Shown one piece after another: positions 1-53,861 of a DNA stretch of 64,000 nucleotides. Positions within the stretch are counted from its first letter, which is position 1. Each line of letters starts with the position of its first letter. Under the pieces are notes generated by a model that did no database searches, was not told where the DNA came from, and saw only the letters and a program-made list of their open reading frames with translations. The stretch is from Nitrosopumilus sp. (GTDB lineage Archaea > Thermoproteota > Nitrososphaeria > Nitrososphaerales > Nitrosopumilaceae), in NCBI GenBank assembly GCA_965214775.1, contig OZ243974.1, positions 1,216,001-1,280,000 on the forward strand, written 5' to 3'. Made by a program: the position numbers and the translations under genes.

Positions 1-130
1 CTTGCCTTGGCGATCCCCCCCGTGATGTCTGCATTTATCCTGTCTGAGTTCTCCTCGGGCAGGCAGCAGTGGGGATTTTCCTAAAGCGTCAGAGGCCGAG
101 CCGGATGACCGCAATGCAACACCGCAATCG

Positions 131-33646: not shown

Positions 33647-36039
33647 TGTGTTATATGGAAATAATGTCCGCTATTCATTGATGTCCCTCTCCATCCATTT
33701 TGGGTCGGATTTCCTGATCGCTTCTGTGGCAGTTTTGTCCGAGAACGCCATGATGGGTGTCTGGCGGTGGGCTATGTCCAGCCCAAAGTGTAGCCTGCGC
33801 TCGTTGTAATACTTGATGTATGCATCCAAGCTCTCATAGTGGCGGATCTCAGCCTCTATGCTGCCGTGGAACCGTTCCAACTTGCCGTTGGTCTCCGGAT
33901 GGTACGGCCTGGAGTTTATCAGCCCGATGCCCCGATCCAGCAGCTCGGCCTCAAAGGCAGTCGGCGTCCACGTCCCGCGTGGCATGTTCTTCTTGCTGCG
34001 GCCGCCGTTGAAGCACCTGCCGTTGTCAGACAGTATGGTGGCCGGCTTGCCAAACCTGCCTATGGCCTCCCTGAGTGTTATCACCACGTTTTCTGATGTG
34101 GCATCTGCAAACGTCCGTGCCGCCGTGACACACCGGGAGGAATCGTCCAAAAACGTGACTAATTTGAGCCCTCTCAGGCGTGGATCCTTCATTTCGTGCC
34201 AGTCCACGTGCCACATTGCGTTGGAGTACTTGCGCTCATAGCGCAGCCATTTCTTTTGGCCCGACTTGGTATCTGATGCGGCAACGAGTCCCTGCTCCTT
34301 CATTATCCGATATACGCTGTTGTAGCTTATAATGTGACCTGCATCCTGCAGGCGCATGGCAGTGCGCATCACGCCCACGTGCTCTATACAGTGCATGTCC
34401 AAGACTGCCTGCACCTGGCCTGCCGCGGGCTGCGGTGCGGCCTTTCTTCCAGCCTTTTGTTGCACATGCATCTTTCCGGTCCGGCGGTACCTGGCGTAAA
34501 TCCTCCTCACGTGCCGTGGCGTCACCTTCATGTCACGGGCCAGCGACGTGGCGCTCTTTCCGGCATTACGTCCCTTGACGATATACCTGATCTCTTTGTC
34601 CGACATCTTTCTTGTCATGTCTTTATCTGATCGGGGCGTTGTCCGGAATTTTTCCAGAAATCTACCGATAAGCTTATAGATCATAAGCGCAGGATGCGAC
34701 AACCTTATGGATCATAGGATCGACGTCCCCGTATCAATGAAATCAAAGACCAACAAGAAGGAATCCAAGAAGGAATCCAAGAAGGAATCCAAGAAGGAAT
34801 CCAAGAAGGAATCCAAGAAGGAATCCAAGAAGGAATCCAAGAAGGAATCCAAGAAGGAATCCAGCAAGACCAGCAAGAAAAAAAAGTCAGAGTACACGAG
34901 ACCTCCGGAATACTATGCCGAGTACGAGGAAAAAAGGAGAGAGGACAGCAAGAGGTGCGGCATCGGAATCAAAAAGATCCGCAAGATCCTCCTGTCCCTC
35001 CTCCATAACACAGAGCAAGAGGATGAAATTCCCTATCTTCTGTGCGTACTCGACATGGAGTACCGCGGAAACTCGTATCGCAGACACGTCGAATACATGG
35101 AGTCGAATCCTGGTTCAACTAACATGTACGGGCTCAAAAAGGTTCCGGCCAAGTCGACACTGCATGATGCAGCCGTAAGGATAGCTGCCTGGGACAAGTC
35201 GGTGCTAAGATCGGTACTCTCAGAACAGGCAGGCGCAGACGCCAGGGGAACGTTGCTTGGCGACTCTAGCGGTTTCTCCATAATGAGATACCACACATGG
35301 GAGGACGCAAAGAAGGGCGTCATATCCAGGCAGATGTTTGCCAAGCTGCACATACTGTTGGCCCCGCACGGCAAGATTGCCGCCTGCGAGGTGACGCCGG
35401 GCGAATTCCATGATTCCCCGGTGTTCCGTAACGAGCTGCTACCGCAGGTTCCCAACGGCACAGGACACGTGATCCTGGATGCCGCATACGACTCGTATGA
35501 GAACTGCAGGGTCATAGCCGACGGAGGCAGAACCCCAGTGATATGTCCGCGTACAGGATATACGGTTCACGGGTTCAACGCCCGCTCCAAGATGCTAAGA
35601 TGGCACAAAAAGGACCCCGAGGGATTCGAGAAGACGTACCACCAGCGCAGCCTCGTTGAGTCGGCCTTCTCGTCGATAAAGGCAAGGTTTGACTCCACGG
35701 TGCGCGCCATGTCGCTTCCGATGCAGTCGCTCAGGCTTACCCTCAAGGTATTCTGCTACAATCTGGTCAGCTAGGATCCATAATGCCGGTACGGTGGAAT
35801 CGTCCGGCTAGCGGATGCTATGCAGTATGACGTCAAAACACGGGCCATAACTACACAATGCGGGCCGGAGTGCGGATTCGTCTCTATGTTTGCAGTCATT
35901 GCGCCATGATTTTGTACAAATCTCCCCGGAAATCACGTCCTAAAATCACGATTCCGGACAACGCCTCTGATCGGTACAGCCTGAAATAGTCAGCGATCGT
36001 ACGCCTTATCTTAGGCGGACCTAATTTCTGTATAAGACA
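33647..36039 (-). mobile_element. IS481 type B, copy 2 (transposase about 33671-34618), interrupted upstream of its ORF by an IS5
   Basis: Same IRs as 21639-22691; 15-bp TSD TAACCGATTTGACGC. Confidence 0.93.
34635..35965 (+). mobile_element. IS5-family element (IS903-like ends); transposase 34707-35774 with (KKES)n repeat
   Basis: 15-bp IR GGCGTTGTCCGGAAT; 9-bp TSD TCTGATCGG; GDSSG, HDSP, DAAYDS, YHQRSLVESAFS. Confidence 0.92.
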
Positions 36040-36128
36040 TAACCGATTTGACGCAAATTCGCTTATACATGATCCGAACCTGCCGATTTCGAATTACCTC
36101 TCTGCGTGCCTTCTGACGCTGAAGAGCC

Positions 36129-36167
36129 TATACTGATGATCATTGAAAATTTCGCCTGATTACACGT
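36129..36167. repeat. Inverted copy of the IS630 terminus found at about 39771-39808
   Basis: TATACTGATGATCATTGAAAATTTCGCCTGATTACA is nearly the reverse complement of the IS630 3' end; it could be the left IR or a second right end. Confidence 0.75.
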
Positions 36168-36233
36168 CTTGTGAAGGTTTATAGACGCTATATGAAATCT
36201 TATCCGTATCCTGTGATATACTATTACCGTTGG

Positions 36234-36352
36234 GCCTGAGAGTCGATGTGATCTTACCATGTACAAGGGTGTCTTATAGACTGACTCGTAACAGCAGGCG
36301 GAAAGCAATATACCGCGCAGACGGTGAATGGGAGATTCCGCCCGGATCAGGC
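36234..36352 (+). ncRNA. Candidate IS110 bridge RNA, copy A
   Basis: Lies upstream of the IS110 recombinase; outer stem plus two stem/internal-loop/hairpin modules that covary with 53440-53557. Confidence 0.65.
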
Positions 36353-36378
36353 ATTTTGATCAAAAAGGAGGTGATAAC

Positions 36379-36752
36379 ATGATCAACGTAGGAATAGACG
36401 TACACAAAAAGACATGCGTTGCAGCAGTAAAGGACGACTCTGGCAAGCTGCTTGAGCGATCCAAGTTTGAGAACAGCGTTTTGGCAACAACGAATTTTGC
36501 AACATATATCAAGGAACAATACCGCGGACAGCTGCCAATAAAGGCAGTATGCGAGTCCACTGCCAACTACTGGATTATCGTACATGACACACTTGAGGAC
36601 TGCGGGATAGACACCGTGCTGGTGCATCCGGCAAAGGCCAGGGTGATAGCGCACGCCAAGATAAAGGACGACCGCGTGGATGCAAATATACTTGTCGACC
36701 TACTCAGAGCAGACATGCTGCCAGAGTCGTTTGTGCCTGACAAGCACTACAG
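36379..36752 (+). pseudogene. IS110-family DEDD recombinase, N-terminal part truncated by a MITE
   Basis: GIDVHK, VCESTANYW, KDDRVDA; RBS GGAGGTGA. Confidence 0.9.
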
Positions 36753-36763
36753 AGAGTTGATTC

Positions 36764-38869
36764 GTACAACTTCAGGTCCTTTTTATACTGACTAGGGAAC
36801 TTTTTGCCCGGAACTTTTTGATCCTTCCGCATCTGCTGTGACAGACCCGCTACATCATCACCACACGTCCCTTGTATATGCAAGACCGGCAGCGCGCAGA
36901 CAGCAGATTATTGGCAGACGGCACCTGCAGGAAACCAGCATTGTCAGATTTGCCAGGCGTTGTTGACTGGCAGACTTGCCTACACGGCCGGATTCTTTGA
37001 CATGAAGCTACGGGTTACGCCGTCCCGTAGGCGCCAGACGGATCATGTTGTTGTAGGAGCTGCTACTGGTACGACGGCCATCCGGTTCCGGCGTACCGCT
37101 CCTCCTTCACTGCCTGCGTCATCATCGACTACAGGCGGCCACACCGGCGGCGGCCCGGGACACTCAAAGACGCTGTATTTTGTACCGTCCGTATTGACAA
37201 GCGAGGACAGCAGGCGCGCATTATCATCATCATCTCTTGCTTCTGCAAAGACATCCCAGCCCGGATTCCGCAGGTATTTCAAGAGTCCGCCGGCAGGATG
37301 TATATTCTGCTTGCGACATGTCATCGAAAATGTCAGCAGCGCAGAAGCCGTCTTTCTTCCCCCGTCAGTTACAATCTTGTGACGTGCATTGCGTTGTGGT
37401 ATGATCCCGTCGCGTATGCACCGCTCCGTATCGTTGTTGTGCAGCGGCATTCCCCGATGCGCCAGACACGTAAACATGTTATGTATGGCGTTTAGCAGGT
37501 GTGTACGCACGTGAACGTCCTCATACGGGTTGATTATTTTGTATACTTCCCTGGAAAGCTCCATGCATGTAAGCGGCGCAAGCGTCTTGATTTTATCTAT
37601 CTTCCTGTAGAATTCCAGCAGCAAGTCATACCTTTTCTCGTTATCGCCTTCGGGCATCTTTACTGCAAGCTTTTCTGCATACGCCAGAAGGTGCCTCCAA
37701 CACCTCTGGATTGTCACAAAGAACAGCTTGTACTGGGCCAGTCCGTCTACGACTATGGGAGTCTTGGGATCCAGCCATCCAAAGTGCGTGTGCAGTACCT
37801 CAGAGGACCGGGAATCTGCAAATACCACAAAGCACGCCCCCTCGCAGTTGAGCACCCAGACGTATCCCATGTGTCCGTCGCCGCGCTTAAATCCGGTCTC
37901 GTCCATCTGTATCCACGGCCTGCCCGCAATGAATGACTGTATGCGTTGTATCATGTTTTGTTGAATCGCCTCTGCCACTGCGTGCCGGGCGGCAGTCACG
38001 GTATTTGGGGCCATCTTGAATCCAAACATATACTGAAAGTACTCTGCAATGTCCTCGTCTGTGTTTCCCTTCTCAAAGAACATCATGATTAGAGAGAGTG
38101 AGACGGGCCCAAGTGACGTGCCGCTTAGAAACGGGGTAGCTGCGACATGCACGGTATTGCACTGTGGACACACCGCGTTTTGGATGATGGCATTGGCAGT
38201 GAGCATGCGCATGGAGTCATCTAGGTCGTTTACAAGCTTGTGGATCGGCTTGAGCATCCGTAACTGGATGTTGCACTTTGGGCATATTTTGGAGCCAAGA
38301 TCGTACCTTAATGTCATTGATGGTCGGTTGCCGTGCGATGTACCATGGTGTCTGCACGGAGGGCCGCGTTTCTTGCCCCGAGCAGCATCGCCGGGACTGC
38401 CGCCGGGATCCTCGCCCCTTTTCTCCCTGAACTTTCTTCTGGCATCATTGTATAATGACGGCGTGGACGTGGGCATGTTGGGACTCTCGTACAGGGCAAG
38501 CCTTGCCTGAAGCTTAGAGTTCTCCTTCTTGACATCAGCATTCTCCTTCTTGACAATAGAGAGTTCTTTTTCCAGCCCGGAGATCTTCTCATCCTGCTCC
38601 ATGATCATGACAAGTGCCTTTCCAGGATCCGTACAGTGTGCAAGCACGGCTTTGGAGTCCATATGTTACATCAGACAGGCAAGATCAAAAAAGATTTCCA
38701 TCGAAATTCTTTGACCAAGATGCCGATATTATGTCACTCCCGTAAATTCCAAACCTGCAATATCTGATCACAAATGTCTGATGTTCAGCCATGTTCGCAG
38801 GGGCATCTGATCATAAGATGCTGCCCAAAAATGTTTGACTGTCAGTATAAAAAGGACCTGAAGTTGTAC
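36764..38869 (-). mobile_element. IS66-family element copy 2, intact; transposase 37043-38662; inserted in a MITE (36753-39104)
   Basis: IR GTACAACTTCAGGTCCTTTTTATACTGAC; 8-bp TSD GTTGATTC; coiled coil, CxxC pairs, MDETG, QRCWRHL, NNDTER. Confidence 0.93.
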
Positions 38870-53249: not shown

Positions 53250-53439
53250 CAGGCTGATGTGCAGGCTCAGAAAGACAAACACCCGCAGGAGGTTCGGTCT
53301 GCAAGGCCATAGGATGGAACCTTGAGGTGCTAAACAGGATGGAGTGTGCTGCAAGGATTGGCGTGCCGGTGGAGGCAGCCTGAGGTGAATTAGGCGACAA
53401 CCCCCATTTTATCACCTCCTTTTTGATCAAAGTGTGTGT

Positions 53440-53557
53440 GCCCAACTGAACGGAAAACCCCCATTCGCCTCGATTATGTGGCATTTCGTCGTCCGTCTAC
53501 TCTGAGCCAGTCTCTTACGCGCCCTCATGTGTGGCAAGTTTACTTCGGCTCTTGGGC
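53440..53557 (-). ncRNA. Candidate IS110 bridge RNA, copy B (orphan left end about 53405-53735; ORF lost after the ATG)
   Basis: Homologous to 36183-36381, including TTTGATCAAAAAGGAGGTGATAA.ATG; compensatory stem changes. Confidence 0.6.
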
Positions 53558-53861
53558 CCAACACGGATAATATGGCGTCCGCTACGGATAAGATTTGATG
53601 TATGAGGTTACGTCCCCTTGCCGGCTAGGCACGGAAATCATAATTGTACATGCCAATTCATGCCTGATTGATAGGGGTAGGTGACCACATACGATTTGAT
53701 ATAACGTCTCTTACCATCCACCCGCCATCTTGGGATTCTACTTGGGCACAAAATTCCAACCCAAAGACGATCTGAGTTTCATGTCCCAAAGATTACACAG
53801 AACCTGCAAGGCCAATCTTTATATATTTTATGTAACAATAATTGCCTATAGGTAAATTATC

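Follow-up and report, generated by a model that had tools for sequence, protein, structure and literature searches.

Two regions of a Nitrosopumilus sp. genome, located at positions 36183 to 36378 (plus strand) and 53709 to 53408 (minus strand) of the 64,000-nucleotide stretch of DNA analyzed here (the window), are the left ends of two diverged copies, A and B, of an IS110-family (DEDD recombinase) element. We consider it very probable (roughly 0.88) that the ~197-nt noncoding stretch upstream of the recombinase gene in such left ends encodes a bridge (seek) RNA of ~125 to 150 nt. The RNA would consist of an outer stem around two modules, each composed of a stem, an internal loop, and a hairpin.

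Left ends in the window and intact copies

The ends of the element were defined from 28 left boundaries, at least 14 right boundaries, and empty sites. Intact copies are 1337 bp long and encode a 359-aa DEDD/Ser recombinase, with a left end of ~197 nt and a right end of 57 nt; three copies with an uninterrupted 359-aa recombinase are present in the genome. The left end reads AGACGCT and then ATATGAAATC, and the right ends of intact copies read GATTTCATAT plus GGG. The subterminal inverted repeats are 9 to 10 bp long, with terminal extensions of 7 bp (left) and 3 bp (right), and they covary across subfamilies (ATATCAAAT/ATTTGATAT and ATACGAAATC/GATTTCGTAT).

Domains PF01548 and PF02371 were both identified in the intact copy (E values, 3.3e-28 and 5.8e-21, respectively). 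The recombinase scored 245.5 bits with the NCBIfam model NF033542, "IS110 family RNA-guided transposase" (cutoff, 140), and the nearest solved structures were those of the ISCro4 and IS621 transposases (E, ~1e-11). Residues D7, E59, D98, D101, and S228/S237 are conserved in four diverged homologues, and their putative catalytic roles are assigned by analogy. In a tblastn search of plasmids, the recombinase matched sequences with no name more specific than "IS110 family transposase," all at no more than 39% identity; one of the matches was haloarchaeal.

The original prediction placed copy A upstream of an IS110 recombinase gene. The gene does belong to the IS110 family; however, it is present only as an N-terminal fragment, a 138-aa ORF, and the homology with an intact 1337-bp copy in a BLAST comparison stops at window position 36755, beyond which neither the remainder of the gene nor a right end is present. 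The diverged homologue predicted at about 53405 to 53710 on the minus strand is also present, but the true end of copy B is at 53709, a 93-bp repeat separates the element end from the RNA part, and the gene stops after the ATG. Both copies are dead relics: copy A has neither its right end nor the greater part of the recombinase gene, and copy B is interrupted, truncated, and mutated in the core of loop 2. The features of both copies are listed in Table 1.

Table 1. Features of copies A and B in the window, and one intact recombinase gene (genome coordinates)
Feature	Position	Strand	Basis or remark
Copy A, left target half GGTTTAT	36176-36182	+	Boundary set by 28 left ends
Copy A, core AG (element start)	36183-36184	+	Boundary from 28 left ends
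Copy A, ACGCT (5 nt; with the AG core, the 7-bp terminal extension)	from 36185	+	
Copy A, subterminal inverted repeat ATATGAAATC	36190-36199	+	Intact right ends, GATTTCATAT+GGG
Copy A, putative bridge RNA gene, structured core (P1, target-binding and donor-binding loops)	36229-36355	+	Covariance model R1, 132.3 bits, E 5.5e-34
Copy A, P1	36234-36239 with 36347-36352	+	
Copy A, P2	36240-36244 with 36283-36287	+	
Copy A, loop-1 5' strand GATGTGATCTT, putative right-target guide	36245-36255	+	Positions 4-8 are the reverse complement of ATCAC
Copy A, P3	36256-36258 with 36268-36270	+	
Copy A, loop-1 3' strand GTCTTATAGACT	36271-36282	+	Left flank GGTTTAT, -1 to -4 match
Copy A, loop-1 3' strand, putative left-target guide CTTAT	36273-36277	+	
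Copy A, loop-1 3' strand, core AG	36278-36279	+	
Copy A, loop-1 3' strand, AC	36280-36281	+	
Copy A, P4	36297-36303 with 36336-36342	+	
Copy A, loop-2 5' strand AGCAATAT	36304-36311	+	AGC is the reverse complement of left-end +3 to +5 (GCT)
Copy A, P5	36312-36315 with 36322-36325	+	
Copy A, loop-2 3' strand GAATGGGAGA	36326-36335	+	AATGGGAG is the right-end terminus ATGGG plus core AG
Copy A, DEDD recombinase gene, 5' fragment	36379-36755	+	PF01548 alone, E 1.7e-18
Copy B, left target half GTAAG	53714-53710	-	
Copy B, element start, core AG (53709-53708), then ACGTTATATCAAATC	53693-53709	-	Same start in 9 other B-type copies
Copy B, inserted 93-bp MITE-like repeat in the left end	53600-53692	-	>60 genome matches to the repeat
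Copy B, 8-bp duplication ATCAAATC flanking the 93-bp repeat	53700-53693 and 53599-53592	-	
Copy B, putative bridge RNA gene, structured core	53437-53562	-	Covariance model R1, 125.6 bits, E 3.8e-32
Copy B, P1	53557-53552 with 53445-53440	-	
Copy B, P2	53551-53547 with 53508-53504	-	
Copy B, loop-1 5' strand GAAGTAAACTT	53546-53536	-	
Copy B, P3	53535-53533 with 53523-53521	-	
Copy B, loop-1 3' strand GCGTAAGAGACT	53520-53509	-	
Copy B, P4	53496-53492 with 53454-53450	-	
Copy B, loop-2 5' strand	53491-53483	-	
Copy B, P5	53482-53480 with 53469-53467	-	
Copy B, loop-2 3' strand GAATGGGGGTTT	53466-53455	-	Core mutated, GG for AG
Copy B, recombinase start codon ATG	53405-53407	-	Similarity to other copies ends right after
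Example of an intact 359-aa recombinase gene	G000 2746841-2747917		

Paired stems of the putative RNA

An outer stem, two loop stems, and two inner hairpins had been predicted from copies A and B, and all five helices were found at their predicted places in both. Between the two copies, 16 of the 24 base pairs are identical, and 6 differ on both sides and are still paired; one-sided changes do not occur, in agreement with the claim that the paired segments change together. Two pairs, the innermost ones of P4 and P5, are unpaired in copy B. The matches to covariance model R1 sit upstream of the recombinase ATG.

The predicted covariation was also seen in a larger data set, consisting of 44 and 21 distinct copies from nine genomes and metagenomes in alignments fitted to the model. 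In the larger model-fitted alignment, 89.1% of 1024 cells pair, versus 28.9% to 53.8% when the partners are slid by 1 to 3 columns; across both copy sets, sliding lowers the ~89% to 26% to 54%. The observed percentage paired, number of double-change cells, and covariation score were reached by none of 500 shuffles, and the observed number of pairs with double changes was reached by 1 of 500, while the "further pair types" measure showed no excess over the shuffles (317 of 500 reached the observed value). In a test set of 24 copies from seven other genomes, all outside model building, 89.3% of 496 cells pair. The stem pairing of both window copies exceeds chance.

With a MAFFT alignment of 14 diverse copies that had not been fitted to the model, RNAalifold recovered four of the five helices. 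In the model alignment, the A subfamily is out of register by one column at helix 4 (71.6% paired); a best-register recount over 63 sequences, which is biased upward, gave six of six pairs in 26 sequences, five of six in 32, and four of six in 5. Single-sequence folds were not more stable than those of shuffled sequences (z, +1.61 for copy A and +0.07 for copy B). A search of the whole window with Rfam 15 at gathering thresholds identified a tRNA only, and a search of positions 36000 to 36500 at E values of up to 10 gave two chance-level matches. We infer the strand, ends, and abundance of the RNA from the sequence; G-U pairs versus A-C mismatches in helices 1, 2, 3, and 5 numbered 53 versus 30, mildly favoring the recombinase strand.

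Loop strands, insertion sites, and element ends

A correspondence between the loop-1 strands and the flanks of the insertion sites, raised in the original prediction, was found for both strands. The 5 nt on the left side of the element, followed by the AG core, recur in the loop-1 3' strand: among 30 unique insertion events (L019, with an internal duplication, and L048, with no flank, are excluded), flank positions -1 to -5 are identical to this strand in 28, 24, 27, 28, and 23 events, respectively, whereas positions -6 and -7 match at chance level (6 and 7 events). The sum of matches was reached by 0 of 20,000 flank shuffles. The corresponding numbers for the test set are 15, 16, 14, 13, and 13 of 16 unique events in the seven further genomes, again with 0 of 20,000 shuffles; flank and donor counts for this set exclude 5 of the 24 matches that had no recognizable element start or 12-nt strand. 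L104, from the unpublished genome G132, was excluded from every analysis.

On the other side, positions 4 to 8 of the 11-nt loop-1 5' strand are the reverse complement of the 3 to 5 nt right of the core. Flank positions +1 to +5 match in 14, 15, 15, 11, and 7 of 16 events (0 of 20,000 shuffles), with L035 (a repeat at the junction) excluded and the outer of two right ends used for L004. This register, which was picked after the data were seen, gives 62 of 80 matches, and an earlier register anchored on the last CT gave 52 of 80 (0 of 20,000 shuffles). The right-target register shifts by one or two nucleotides between subfamilies, and subfamilies O and P appear to need a further shift of one nucleotide. 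The flanks of four misfit copies (L007, L016, L107, and L008) match one half only.

Loop-1 sequences differ among copies, and the copies reside in matching sites, for the most part where elements of other IS and MITE families end. A and B had been proposed to be guide variants that differ in specificity, and the matching sites were identified for each. Loop 1 of copy A specifies TTAT-AG-ATC, and copy A is inserted at precisely this sequence, which stands unbroken in the other copies of the host repeat (GGTTTAT-AG-ATCTCC, 8 of 8). In copy A, the loop-1 5' strand carries a CT complementary to the core, positions +1 to +3 of the empty site AG-ATCTCC match the same strand, and the AC after the loop-1 core copy is identical to the first two left-end bases, resembling a handshake guide. 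Loop 1 of copy B specifies GTAAG-AG-TTTAC, and the left flank of copy B is GTAAG. The B-type target is the outermost 12 nt of a repeat. B-type right ends were located only after the flank AG-TTTAC had been predicted from the loop, and at four loci they are followed by AG-TTTACCCC. The genome has 74 empty sites of the type GTA[AT]G-AG-TTTAC, and pattern searches for four specificities gave 74, 26, 17, and 1 empty sites. A filled site has the form LT-AG-[element]-AG-RT and an empty one LT-AG-RT; insertion is conservative, with a single AG and without further duplication.

In loop 2, the strands match both element ends that would meet at a circle junction, the second correspondence that had been suggested. 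The internal-loop strands were originally described as variable except for GAATGGG. This segment is invariant, but there is more to it, as it repeats the right-end terminus of the element: the loop-2 3' strand contains the last 5 to 6 nt of the right end plus AG, and right ends read CATATGGG followed by AG. Within the family, this strand is invariant, which amounts to conservation without covariation. Nucleotides 1 to 3 of the loop-2 5' strand and left-end positions +3 to +5 form three Watson-Crick pairs in 34 of 41 copies and two such pairs plus a wobble in the other 7; in the test set, three pairs were found in 13 of 19 copies, a wobble in 3, and a mismatch in 3. Six Watson-Crick-consistent states occur (GCT/AGC, GTT/AAC, GAT/ATC, AAT/ATT, ACT/AGT, and GCC/GGC), and for the AAT state, the prediction from the RNA preceded the reading of the L050 left end. 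The 5' strand pairs with these three left-end nucleotides only, and the core is not covered. A contiguous loop-2 5' guide to the core and left-end start (expected, ...GCGTCT) is absent, and a sense-strand similarity of the 5' strand to the left end was dropped in favor of the covarying 3-nt antiparallel match. The remaining 5 nt of the strand are AAUAU, AAAAU, or GAAAU and have no assigned match.

By homology with IS621 and ISEc11, the RNA would be a transcript of the recombinase strand and a binding partner of the enzyme, with module 1 holding the target, module 2 holding the circle junction (right end-AG-left end), and strand exchange occurring at the core. Since the module 1 3' strand has the sequence of the left flank plus AG, it could pair with the bottom strand, and positions 4 to 8 of the module 1 5' strand would pair with the complementary top strand right of the core. 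The dinucleotide that follows the core copy in each 3' strand may likewise act as a handshake guide: AC in loop 1 equals the left-end start, and AT, TT, or TA in loop 2 often equals the first right-target bases. By inspection, both loop-2 handshake nucleotides match the right target in subfamilies A-ii, B, J, and M, and half of the match is present in A-i, G, I, N, O, and P.

A structured region that adjoins a Shine-Dalgarno-like GGAGGTG and an ATG might instead act in cis, as a leader through which the translation or stability of the recombinase mRNA is controlled, and have no guide function; a regulatory role for IS110 noncoding ends has been proposed earlier (PMC11208160). Such a leader, however, has no need for internal-loop strands that track flanking DNA or element termini, and deletion derivatives without the recombinase gene retain the structure; we regard a leader as highly improbable. 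No more credible is an origin of the loop-flank matches at the DNA level, as copied junctions or protein-recognized sites with the RNA uninvolved. One right end is joined to the loop-1 DNA of another copy (G000 2788411), and therefore loop DNA can join recombination. Against this, the loop strands are fixed between helices that are kept paired by compensatory changes, which is a constraint at the RNA level; one strand is sense and the other antisense with both 3' ends at the core, which is the geometry of the IS621 complex (PMC11208158); and the same logic holds across nine genomes.

Mostly Watson-Crick helices would form in the complement too, and the G-U excess over A-C is modest, so a functional RNA from the opposite strand has to be considered. 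Its guides, however, would both have their 5' ends at the core, unlike those of either characterized family, the two post-core nucleotides would no longer come after the guides, and the RNA would run away from the recombinase gene; this makes transcription from that strand very unlikely. The RNA could also be an ordinary bridge RNA of the IS621 type (IS110 group), with a reversed guide order that merely reflects misassigned ends, given that it lies upstream of the gene and that its target loop precedes its donor loop, as in IS621 (PMC11208160). That reading is extremely improbable: the ends come from 28 left boundaries, at least 14 right boundaries, and empty sites, the core on the coding strand is AG rather than CT, the left flank is identical to the loop-1 3' strand here and to the 5' strand in IS621, and the 10-bp subterminal repeats and the extensions of 7 and 3 bp are as described for IS1111. 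We retain a bridge RNA encoded on the recombinase strand as the preferred reading.

Relation to known IS110 systems and significance

For IS621, a scheme with two loops, a core, and handshake guides has been described (Durrant et al. 2024, PMC11208160; Hiraizumi et al. 2024, PMC11208158; and PMC13626964). The element described here and IS621 share (i) a DEDD/Ser recombinase with PF01548 and PF02371; (ii) an RNA in a long left end, upstream of the gene; (iii) two stem-internal loop-hairpin modules, of which the target module is variable and precedes the conserved donor module; (iv) loops that each read opposite DNA strands on the left and right, overlapping at a 2-nt core; (v) two extra nucleotides after the 3'-strand guide that can match the noncognate partner (handshake); and (vi) conservative insertion into repeated sequences. 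In contrast to IS621, the order within the loops is reversed (here, pairing to the right, with the top strand, is by the 5' strand, and pairing to the left, with the bottom strand, is by the 3' strand); the coding-strand core is AG (CT on the other strand); the subterminal inverted repeats are 10 bp long, versus 2 to 3 bp; and the guides are shorter, with 5 plus 2 nt on the left, 3 to 5 (plus 2) nt on the right, and a left-end donor guide of 3 nt that leaves the core uncovered. In addition, the host is an archaeon, and a sigma-70 junction promoter therefore cannot apply.

IS1111-type elements are described as having subterminal repeats (7 to 17 bp), 7-bp left and 3-bp right extensions, a "top strand first" guide order, and, with few exceptions, a long noncoding region and an RNA downstream of the gene (Siddiquee et al. 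2024, PMC11187229). ISEc11, ISPa11, and ISKpn4 share with our element the subterminal repeats with both extensions, a segment complementary to the top strand that precedes the bottom-strand match, insertion that duplicates no bases, and natural reprogramming among relatives. However, the noncoding region and the RNA are upstream of the gene here and downstream there, and the donor loop here is a simple internal loop, whereas many IS1111 RNAs are multiloop (PMC11208160). ISMtsp17, an IS1111-type element mentioned in PMC11187229, likewise combines IS1111-type features with a 5' noncoding region.

In the broad ISfinder sense, the element is an IS110 family member by its recombinase domains, its conservative insertion, and a structured RNA with matching loops. 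It shares the RNA position with the IS110 group proper (IS621-like) but not the guide order and core or the 2- to 3-bp repeats; with the IS1111 group, it shares the end structure and guide order but not the downstream RNA. The reversed guide order and the long subterminal inverted repeats argue for a closer likeness to the IS1111 group than to the IS621 group, as judged from the sequences. An earlier study reportedly concerned bacterial plasmid-borne elements; those described here are archaeal. Literature searches gave no paper on a thaumarchaeal element with a bridge or seek RNA; the family may already be included in the 2026 cluster catalogue (10.64898/2026.10.21.760802) or in the tables that PMC11208160 and PMC11187229 give for ISfinder as a whole.

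Tentatively, and at somewhat below even odds, we propose that, in this archaeal lineage, a whole swarm of left-end RNA genes depends on a single recombinase in an element of hybrid architecture and that derivatives of ~480 to 490 bp are trans-mobilized "bridge-RNA-only" elements. Several RNA genes appear to ride on such deletion derivatives, which have no recombinase gene. Each derivative would carry a guide pair absent from the three intact copies and sit in the site specified by its own RNA; most such sites belong to rival IS and MITE families, as their termini or leaders, which would amount to reprogramming within a single genome. The hybrid architecture would combine IS1111-type ends and guide order with an IS621-type RNA position and two simple loops.

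The mechanism is already established, and the arrangement is a variant of it. Two-loop guide RNAs are known from bacteria, and the archaeal case is therefore a clear but expected extension, confirmatory rather than surprising. RNA-guided (bridge or seek RNA) recombination would be extended to archaea of the ammonia-oxidizer type, with sequence-level evidence for four guide-DNA relations. At least six target specificities occur in one genome, with filled and empty sites, and this series is a data set for the guide rules of an IS1111-like system with an upstream RNA. The choice of sites suggests that competition among IS elements takes the form of targeting one another's terminal repeats. A link of archaeal IS110 recombinases to Nop5 and C/D-box RNPs has been proposed (preprint 10.1101/2024.06.21.599552), and an archaeal element with a defined RNA partner would make the comparison with Nop5 and C/D-box RNPs testable.

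The IS110-family element and its copies

The left-end sequence at 36183 to 36378 (copy A, plus strand) is followed without a gap by an ATG at 36379 to 36381. This ATG starts an ORF of 138 amino acids in which PF01548 (the N-terminal DEDD domain) was identified alone; the IS110 recombinase of the original prediction is correct as to family, but only an N-terminal fragment of it is present. The similarity of copy A to intact elements stops at 36755. An IS66-family DDE ORF sits just past this break point, and the sequence at 36760 to 36800 is the terminus of a repeat with many copies that are 98 to 100% identical. The minus-strand homologue (copy B) is interrupted by a 93-bp MITE-like repeat with an 8-bp duplication, ATCAAATC, on its flanks, and its similarity to relatives vanishes just past its ATG (53407 to 53405). 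A second copy of the 93-bp repeat interrupts the recombinase gene of the sole long B-type element. Both window copies are relics, and the functional claim consequently rests on the family.

In the 2.83-Mb single-contig source genome, 48 places were matched by a 651-nt query around the copy A region, and a left-end profile search gave 38 fragments, 28 of them near full length and 27 of these 28 distinct. The intact element is 1,337 bp long and consists of a left noncoding end of ~197 nt, an ORF of 359 amino acids (PF01548 and PF02371), and a right end of 57 nt; three uninterrupted intact copies are present. The 359-aa protein matched NCBIfam NF033542 (IS110 family RNA-guided transposase) with 245.5 bits (cutoff, 140). 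Since its protein relatives (48 to 90% identity) come from Nitrosopumilus, Nitrosopumilaceae, and Nitrososphaera records and Thaumarchaeota metagenome-assembled genomes, the element is, judging from sequence relatedness, archaeal. Relatives on metagenome contigs were 36 to 57% identical, with weaker ones down to 21%.

Other mobile elements were also identified. A second IS110-family recombinase lineage, 31 to 34% identical to the one studied here, occurs at at least eight loci in the source genome, and the region around 33671 to 35774 of the window is a mobile-element patchwork.

Coordinates of relics, derivatives, and neighboring mobile elements
Feature	Position	Strand	Evidence or description
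Copy B	window, start 53709, repeat 53692-53600, resumption 53599	-	sequence comparison
IS66-family DDE ORF, 539 aa	window 37046-38662	-	PF03050, E 1.2e-19
93-bp MITE-like repeat	window 53600-53692; source genome 404424-404516	- (window copy)	BLAST, >60 matches in genome
Leader of copy A host element	window 36129-36182; source genome 187055, 252879, 1191804, 1209303, 1711947, 2031647, 2538159, 2798822
Second IS110 recombinase lineage	source genome 2022643, 1983080, 2404435, 2401674, 635401, 1906695, 1626327, 1533515
355-aa ORF	window 34707-35774	+	N-terminal KESK repeat run, C-terminal part transposase-like
343-aa ORF	window 33671-34702	-	integrase- or transposase-like
Internal-deletion derivatives	source genome 181544-182022, 808418-807934, 2726221-2726708, 2784515-2785002, 2831780-2831293, 2787933-2788411

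Structure and covariation of the predicted left-end RNA

The left-end RNA is described by five helices, namely, the outer stem P1, P2 and P3 in loop 1, and P4 and P5 in loop 2. Every stem named in the original prediction is present in copies A and B. Of the 24 pairs, 16 are identical in the two copies, 6 are changed on both sides, and none has a change restricted to one side; the other 2 no longer pair in copy B. This confirms the proposed co-changing segments; larger alignments agree. A covariance model built from 40 aligned left ends annotated with these helices gave 47 matches in 52 sequence sources. In the alignment fitted to this model (44 distinct rows, most of which belonged to the seed), 89.1% of 1,024 cells paired, versus 28.9 to 53.8% with slid partners, and 14 of the 24 pairs showed double changes. 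The percentage paired, the number of double-change cells, and the covariation score were reached by none of 500 shuffles and the count of double-change pairs by one, while further pair types were no higher than in the shuffles (317 of 500 reached the observed value). Helix 4 was only 71.6% paired in this alignment because the A subfamily, in which the adjacent loop strand is one nucleotide shorter, was misregistered; its GGCGGAA/TTCCGCC segments pair perfectly in their own register.

As a test set, 151 genomes of the class were searched with the model. Matches were found in nine genomes, including the source genome and an unpublished one, all belonging to a single family; of the 80 further members of this family, 8 had matches, whereas none of the 70 genomes from 11 other families did. 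Pairs were counted in 24 matches from the loci of seven genomes, the unpublished genome being excluded. In these, 89.3% of 496 cells paired and 11 of the 24 pairs showed double changes; none of 500 shuffles reached the three main measures, whereas 26 reached the count of double-change pairs and 470 the observed value for pair types. RNAalifold, applied to 14 diverse chosen copies aligned with MAFFT alone, predicted P2 to P5 de novo (20 pairs, 9 compensatory); P1 was absent from this prediction. Single-sequence folds of copies A and B were not unusually stable.

We infer the transcription of the bridge RNA, its strand, and its ends. The strand test of G-U against A-C was weak (53 versus 30), and, as transcription signals, a T-run immediately after P1 and a TATA-like motif, CTATATG (+4 to +10), are only suggestive.

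Correspondence of the loop strands to insertion flanks and element ends

The boundaries were defined from 28 left and 14 right A-type junctions, plus further right ends. AG borders the element on either side: its left end begins AG-ACGCT-ATATGAAATC..., and its right end closes with ...GATTTCATAT-GGG, after which comes AG. The 3' strand of loop 1 (12 nt) is composed of GT, five variable nucleotides, AG, AC, and T, and the variable nucleotides equal the five to the left of the element. Positions -1 to -5 of the left flank matched this strand in 28, 24, 27, 28, and 23 of 30 unique events in the training set and in 15, 16, 14, 13, and 13 of 16 in the test set, the match sums being reached by 0 of 20,000 flank shuffles in both. 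At positions -6 and -7, the matches were 6/30 and 7/30 (training) and 0/16 and 6/16 (test). In the 5' strand of loop 1 (11 nt), positions 4 to 8 are the reverse complement of the 3 to 5 nt right of the AG after the right end (14, 15, 15, 11, and 7 of 16 events; 0 of 20,000 shuffles), and in the CT-anchored register of this strand the match sum was 52/80. The B-type right flank, AG-TTTAC, was predicted from the loop before the right ends were located, and four loci read ...ATATGGG/AG-TTTACCCC. In the test set, plain counts of right-flank matches were six of six for subfamily M, four for N, and six for O and P in a register shifted by one; locus L107 matched at 3/5. The two strands of the predicted target-binding loop thus match the two insertion flanks.

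Half-matching flanks were seen at L007, L008, L016, and L107. At L016 (~1939 to 2060), a right end is joined via AG, at 2788411 of the source genome, to position ~97 of the left end of another copy, and the junction falls within the DNA encoding the loop-1 3' strand. Because that DNA copies the left target half, a recombination event at a half-site may have taken place. The left flank of L007 (2634801 to 2633347, minus strand) is of the CAGT-AG type and agrees with its own guide, and its right flank is of the AG-ATCTCC type of another guide class; mixed flanks of this kind are what recombination between two copies would be expected to leave.

Loop 2 matches the element ends. Its 3' strand, (G)AATGGGAG, equals the right-end terminus ATGGG plus AG, and both are invariant in the family, so that this is identity without covariation. 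In distant relatives (36 to 41% identity), the right end ...CAATGGTG reappears as AAATGGTG in the left-end RNA. Nucleotides 1 to 3 of the 5' strand, read as reverse complement, correspond to left-end positions +3 to +5 and covary with them through six states (left end/loop 2: GCT/AGC, GTT/AAC, GAT/ATC, AAT/ATT, ACT/AGT, and GCC/GGC). Three Watson-Crick pairs were found in 34 of 41 training copies, with wobble in 7; in the test set, 13 of 19 had three pairs, 3 had wobble, and 3 had a mismatch. Both GCC/GGC and GCT/AGC occur within a single genome (G117); at locus L050, the RNA gave AAT as the expected state before the left end itself was examined. The strand's other five nucleotides show no pairing with the core.

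The distant relatives on metagenome contigs (L055 to L063) have a left-end RNA that differs from the one studied here. On the opposite strand, a tRNA gene borders their right end with its 3' terminus, and these relatives carry the same 7 nt ahead of the left end.

Target sites, derivatives, and relationship to known elements

Copy A is inserted 60 bp within the end of another multicopy element, beginning near CTATACTGA, whose leader it interrupts. Uninterrupted copies of this host read ...GGTTTAT-AG-ATCTCC... (8/8), i.e., the left flank of copy A and the right flank of the sister copies with one AG between them, so insertion is conservative. L003, an intact A-type copy, adjoins the outermost end of this host family, ~55 bp upstream; hence, two guide variants strike one host element. 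Pattern searches of the source genome found 74 B-type empty sites (GTA[AT]G-AG-TTTAC), with a variable left side and a right side belonging to few families. Many form inverted pairs 90 bp or ~1.5 kb apart, from which it follows that other insertion sequences and MITEs offer this site as the outermost 12 nt of their terminal inverted repeats. Empty sites for the three intact A copies (TCAGT-AG-TTCC), for [CT]TTAT-AG-ATCA[TC], and for CAAAC-AG-ATT[AG]A numbered 26, 17, and 1, respectively, and the genome holds at least six guide combinations. Deletion derivatives of ~480 to 490 bp, which retain the right end together with the RNA gene, carry guide pairs not present in the intact copies and are located in matching sites. 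They comprise two classes (left end 1 to 209 with 286 bp from the right part in one, left end 1 to 387 with 111 bp in the other), both of which keep the RNA gene and the two ends.

As far as the excerpted sources describe IS621 (PMC11208160, PMC11208158, PMC13626964), it has a left end, recombinase gene, and right end in this order, a CT core, a left junction of the LT-RD type (target and donor halves), and a loop 3' side that pairs with the top strand on the right over 4 to 7 nt, with two handshake nucleotides next. The thaumarchaeal element differs in having AG as its core on the coding strand and in the placement of its guides: the 3' side of the loop carries the left flank in sense, and the 5' side the right flank in antisense. 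However, its guides also end 3' at the core, with two extra nucleotides after the 3'-side guide, so an IS621-like chemistry would be possible with the DNA viewed from the opposite strand. IS1111-type elements, according to the excerpted text of PMC11187229, have subterminal inverted repeats extended by 7 bp on the left and 3 bp on the right and an RNA in which the complement of the top strand comes before the match to the bottom strand; their noncoding region is usually downstream, with few exceptions such as ISMtsp17. The thaumarchaeal element shares the subterminal repeats with these extensions (AGACGCT and GGG) and the order with the top-strand complement first, but its RNA is upstream of the recombinase gene. 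The most suitable classification is within the IS110 family, as an IS1111-like member whose 5' RNA takes the simple two-loop form.

The excerpted texts indicate that 662 archaeal IS110 recombinases were already known (preprint 10.1101/2024.06.21.599552) and that bridge RNA variants have been mined on a large scale (10.64898/2026.10.21.760802). No description of this thaumarchaeal left-end RNA was found in a literature search of running texts. The pairing, together with the loop-flank and loop-end matches across the family, confirms the original observation and supports its interpretation as an IS110 bridge RNA, to which we assign a probability of about 0.88. The mechanism is already known, while the arrangement is a variant and the host group is new.
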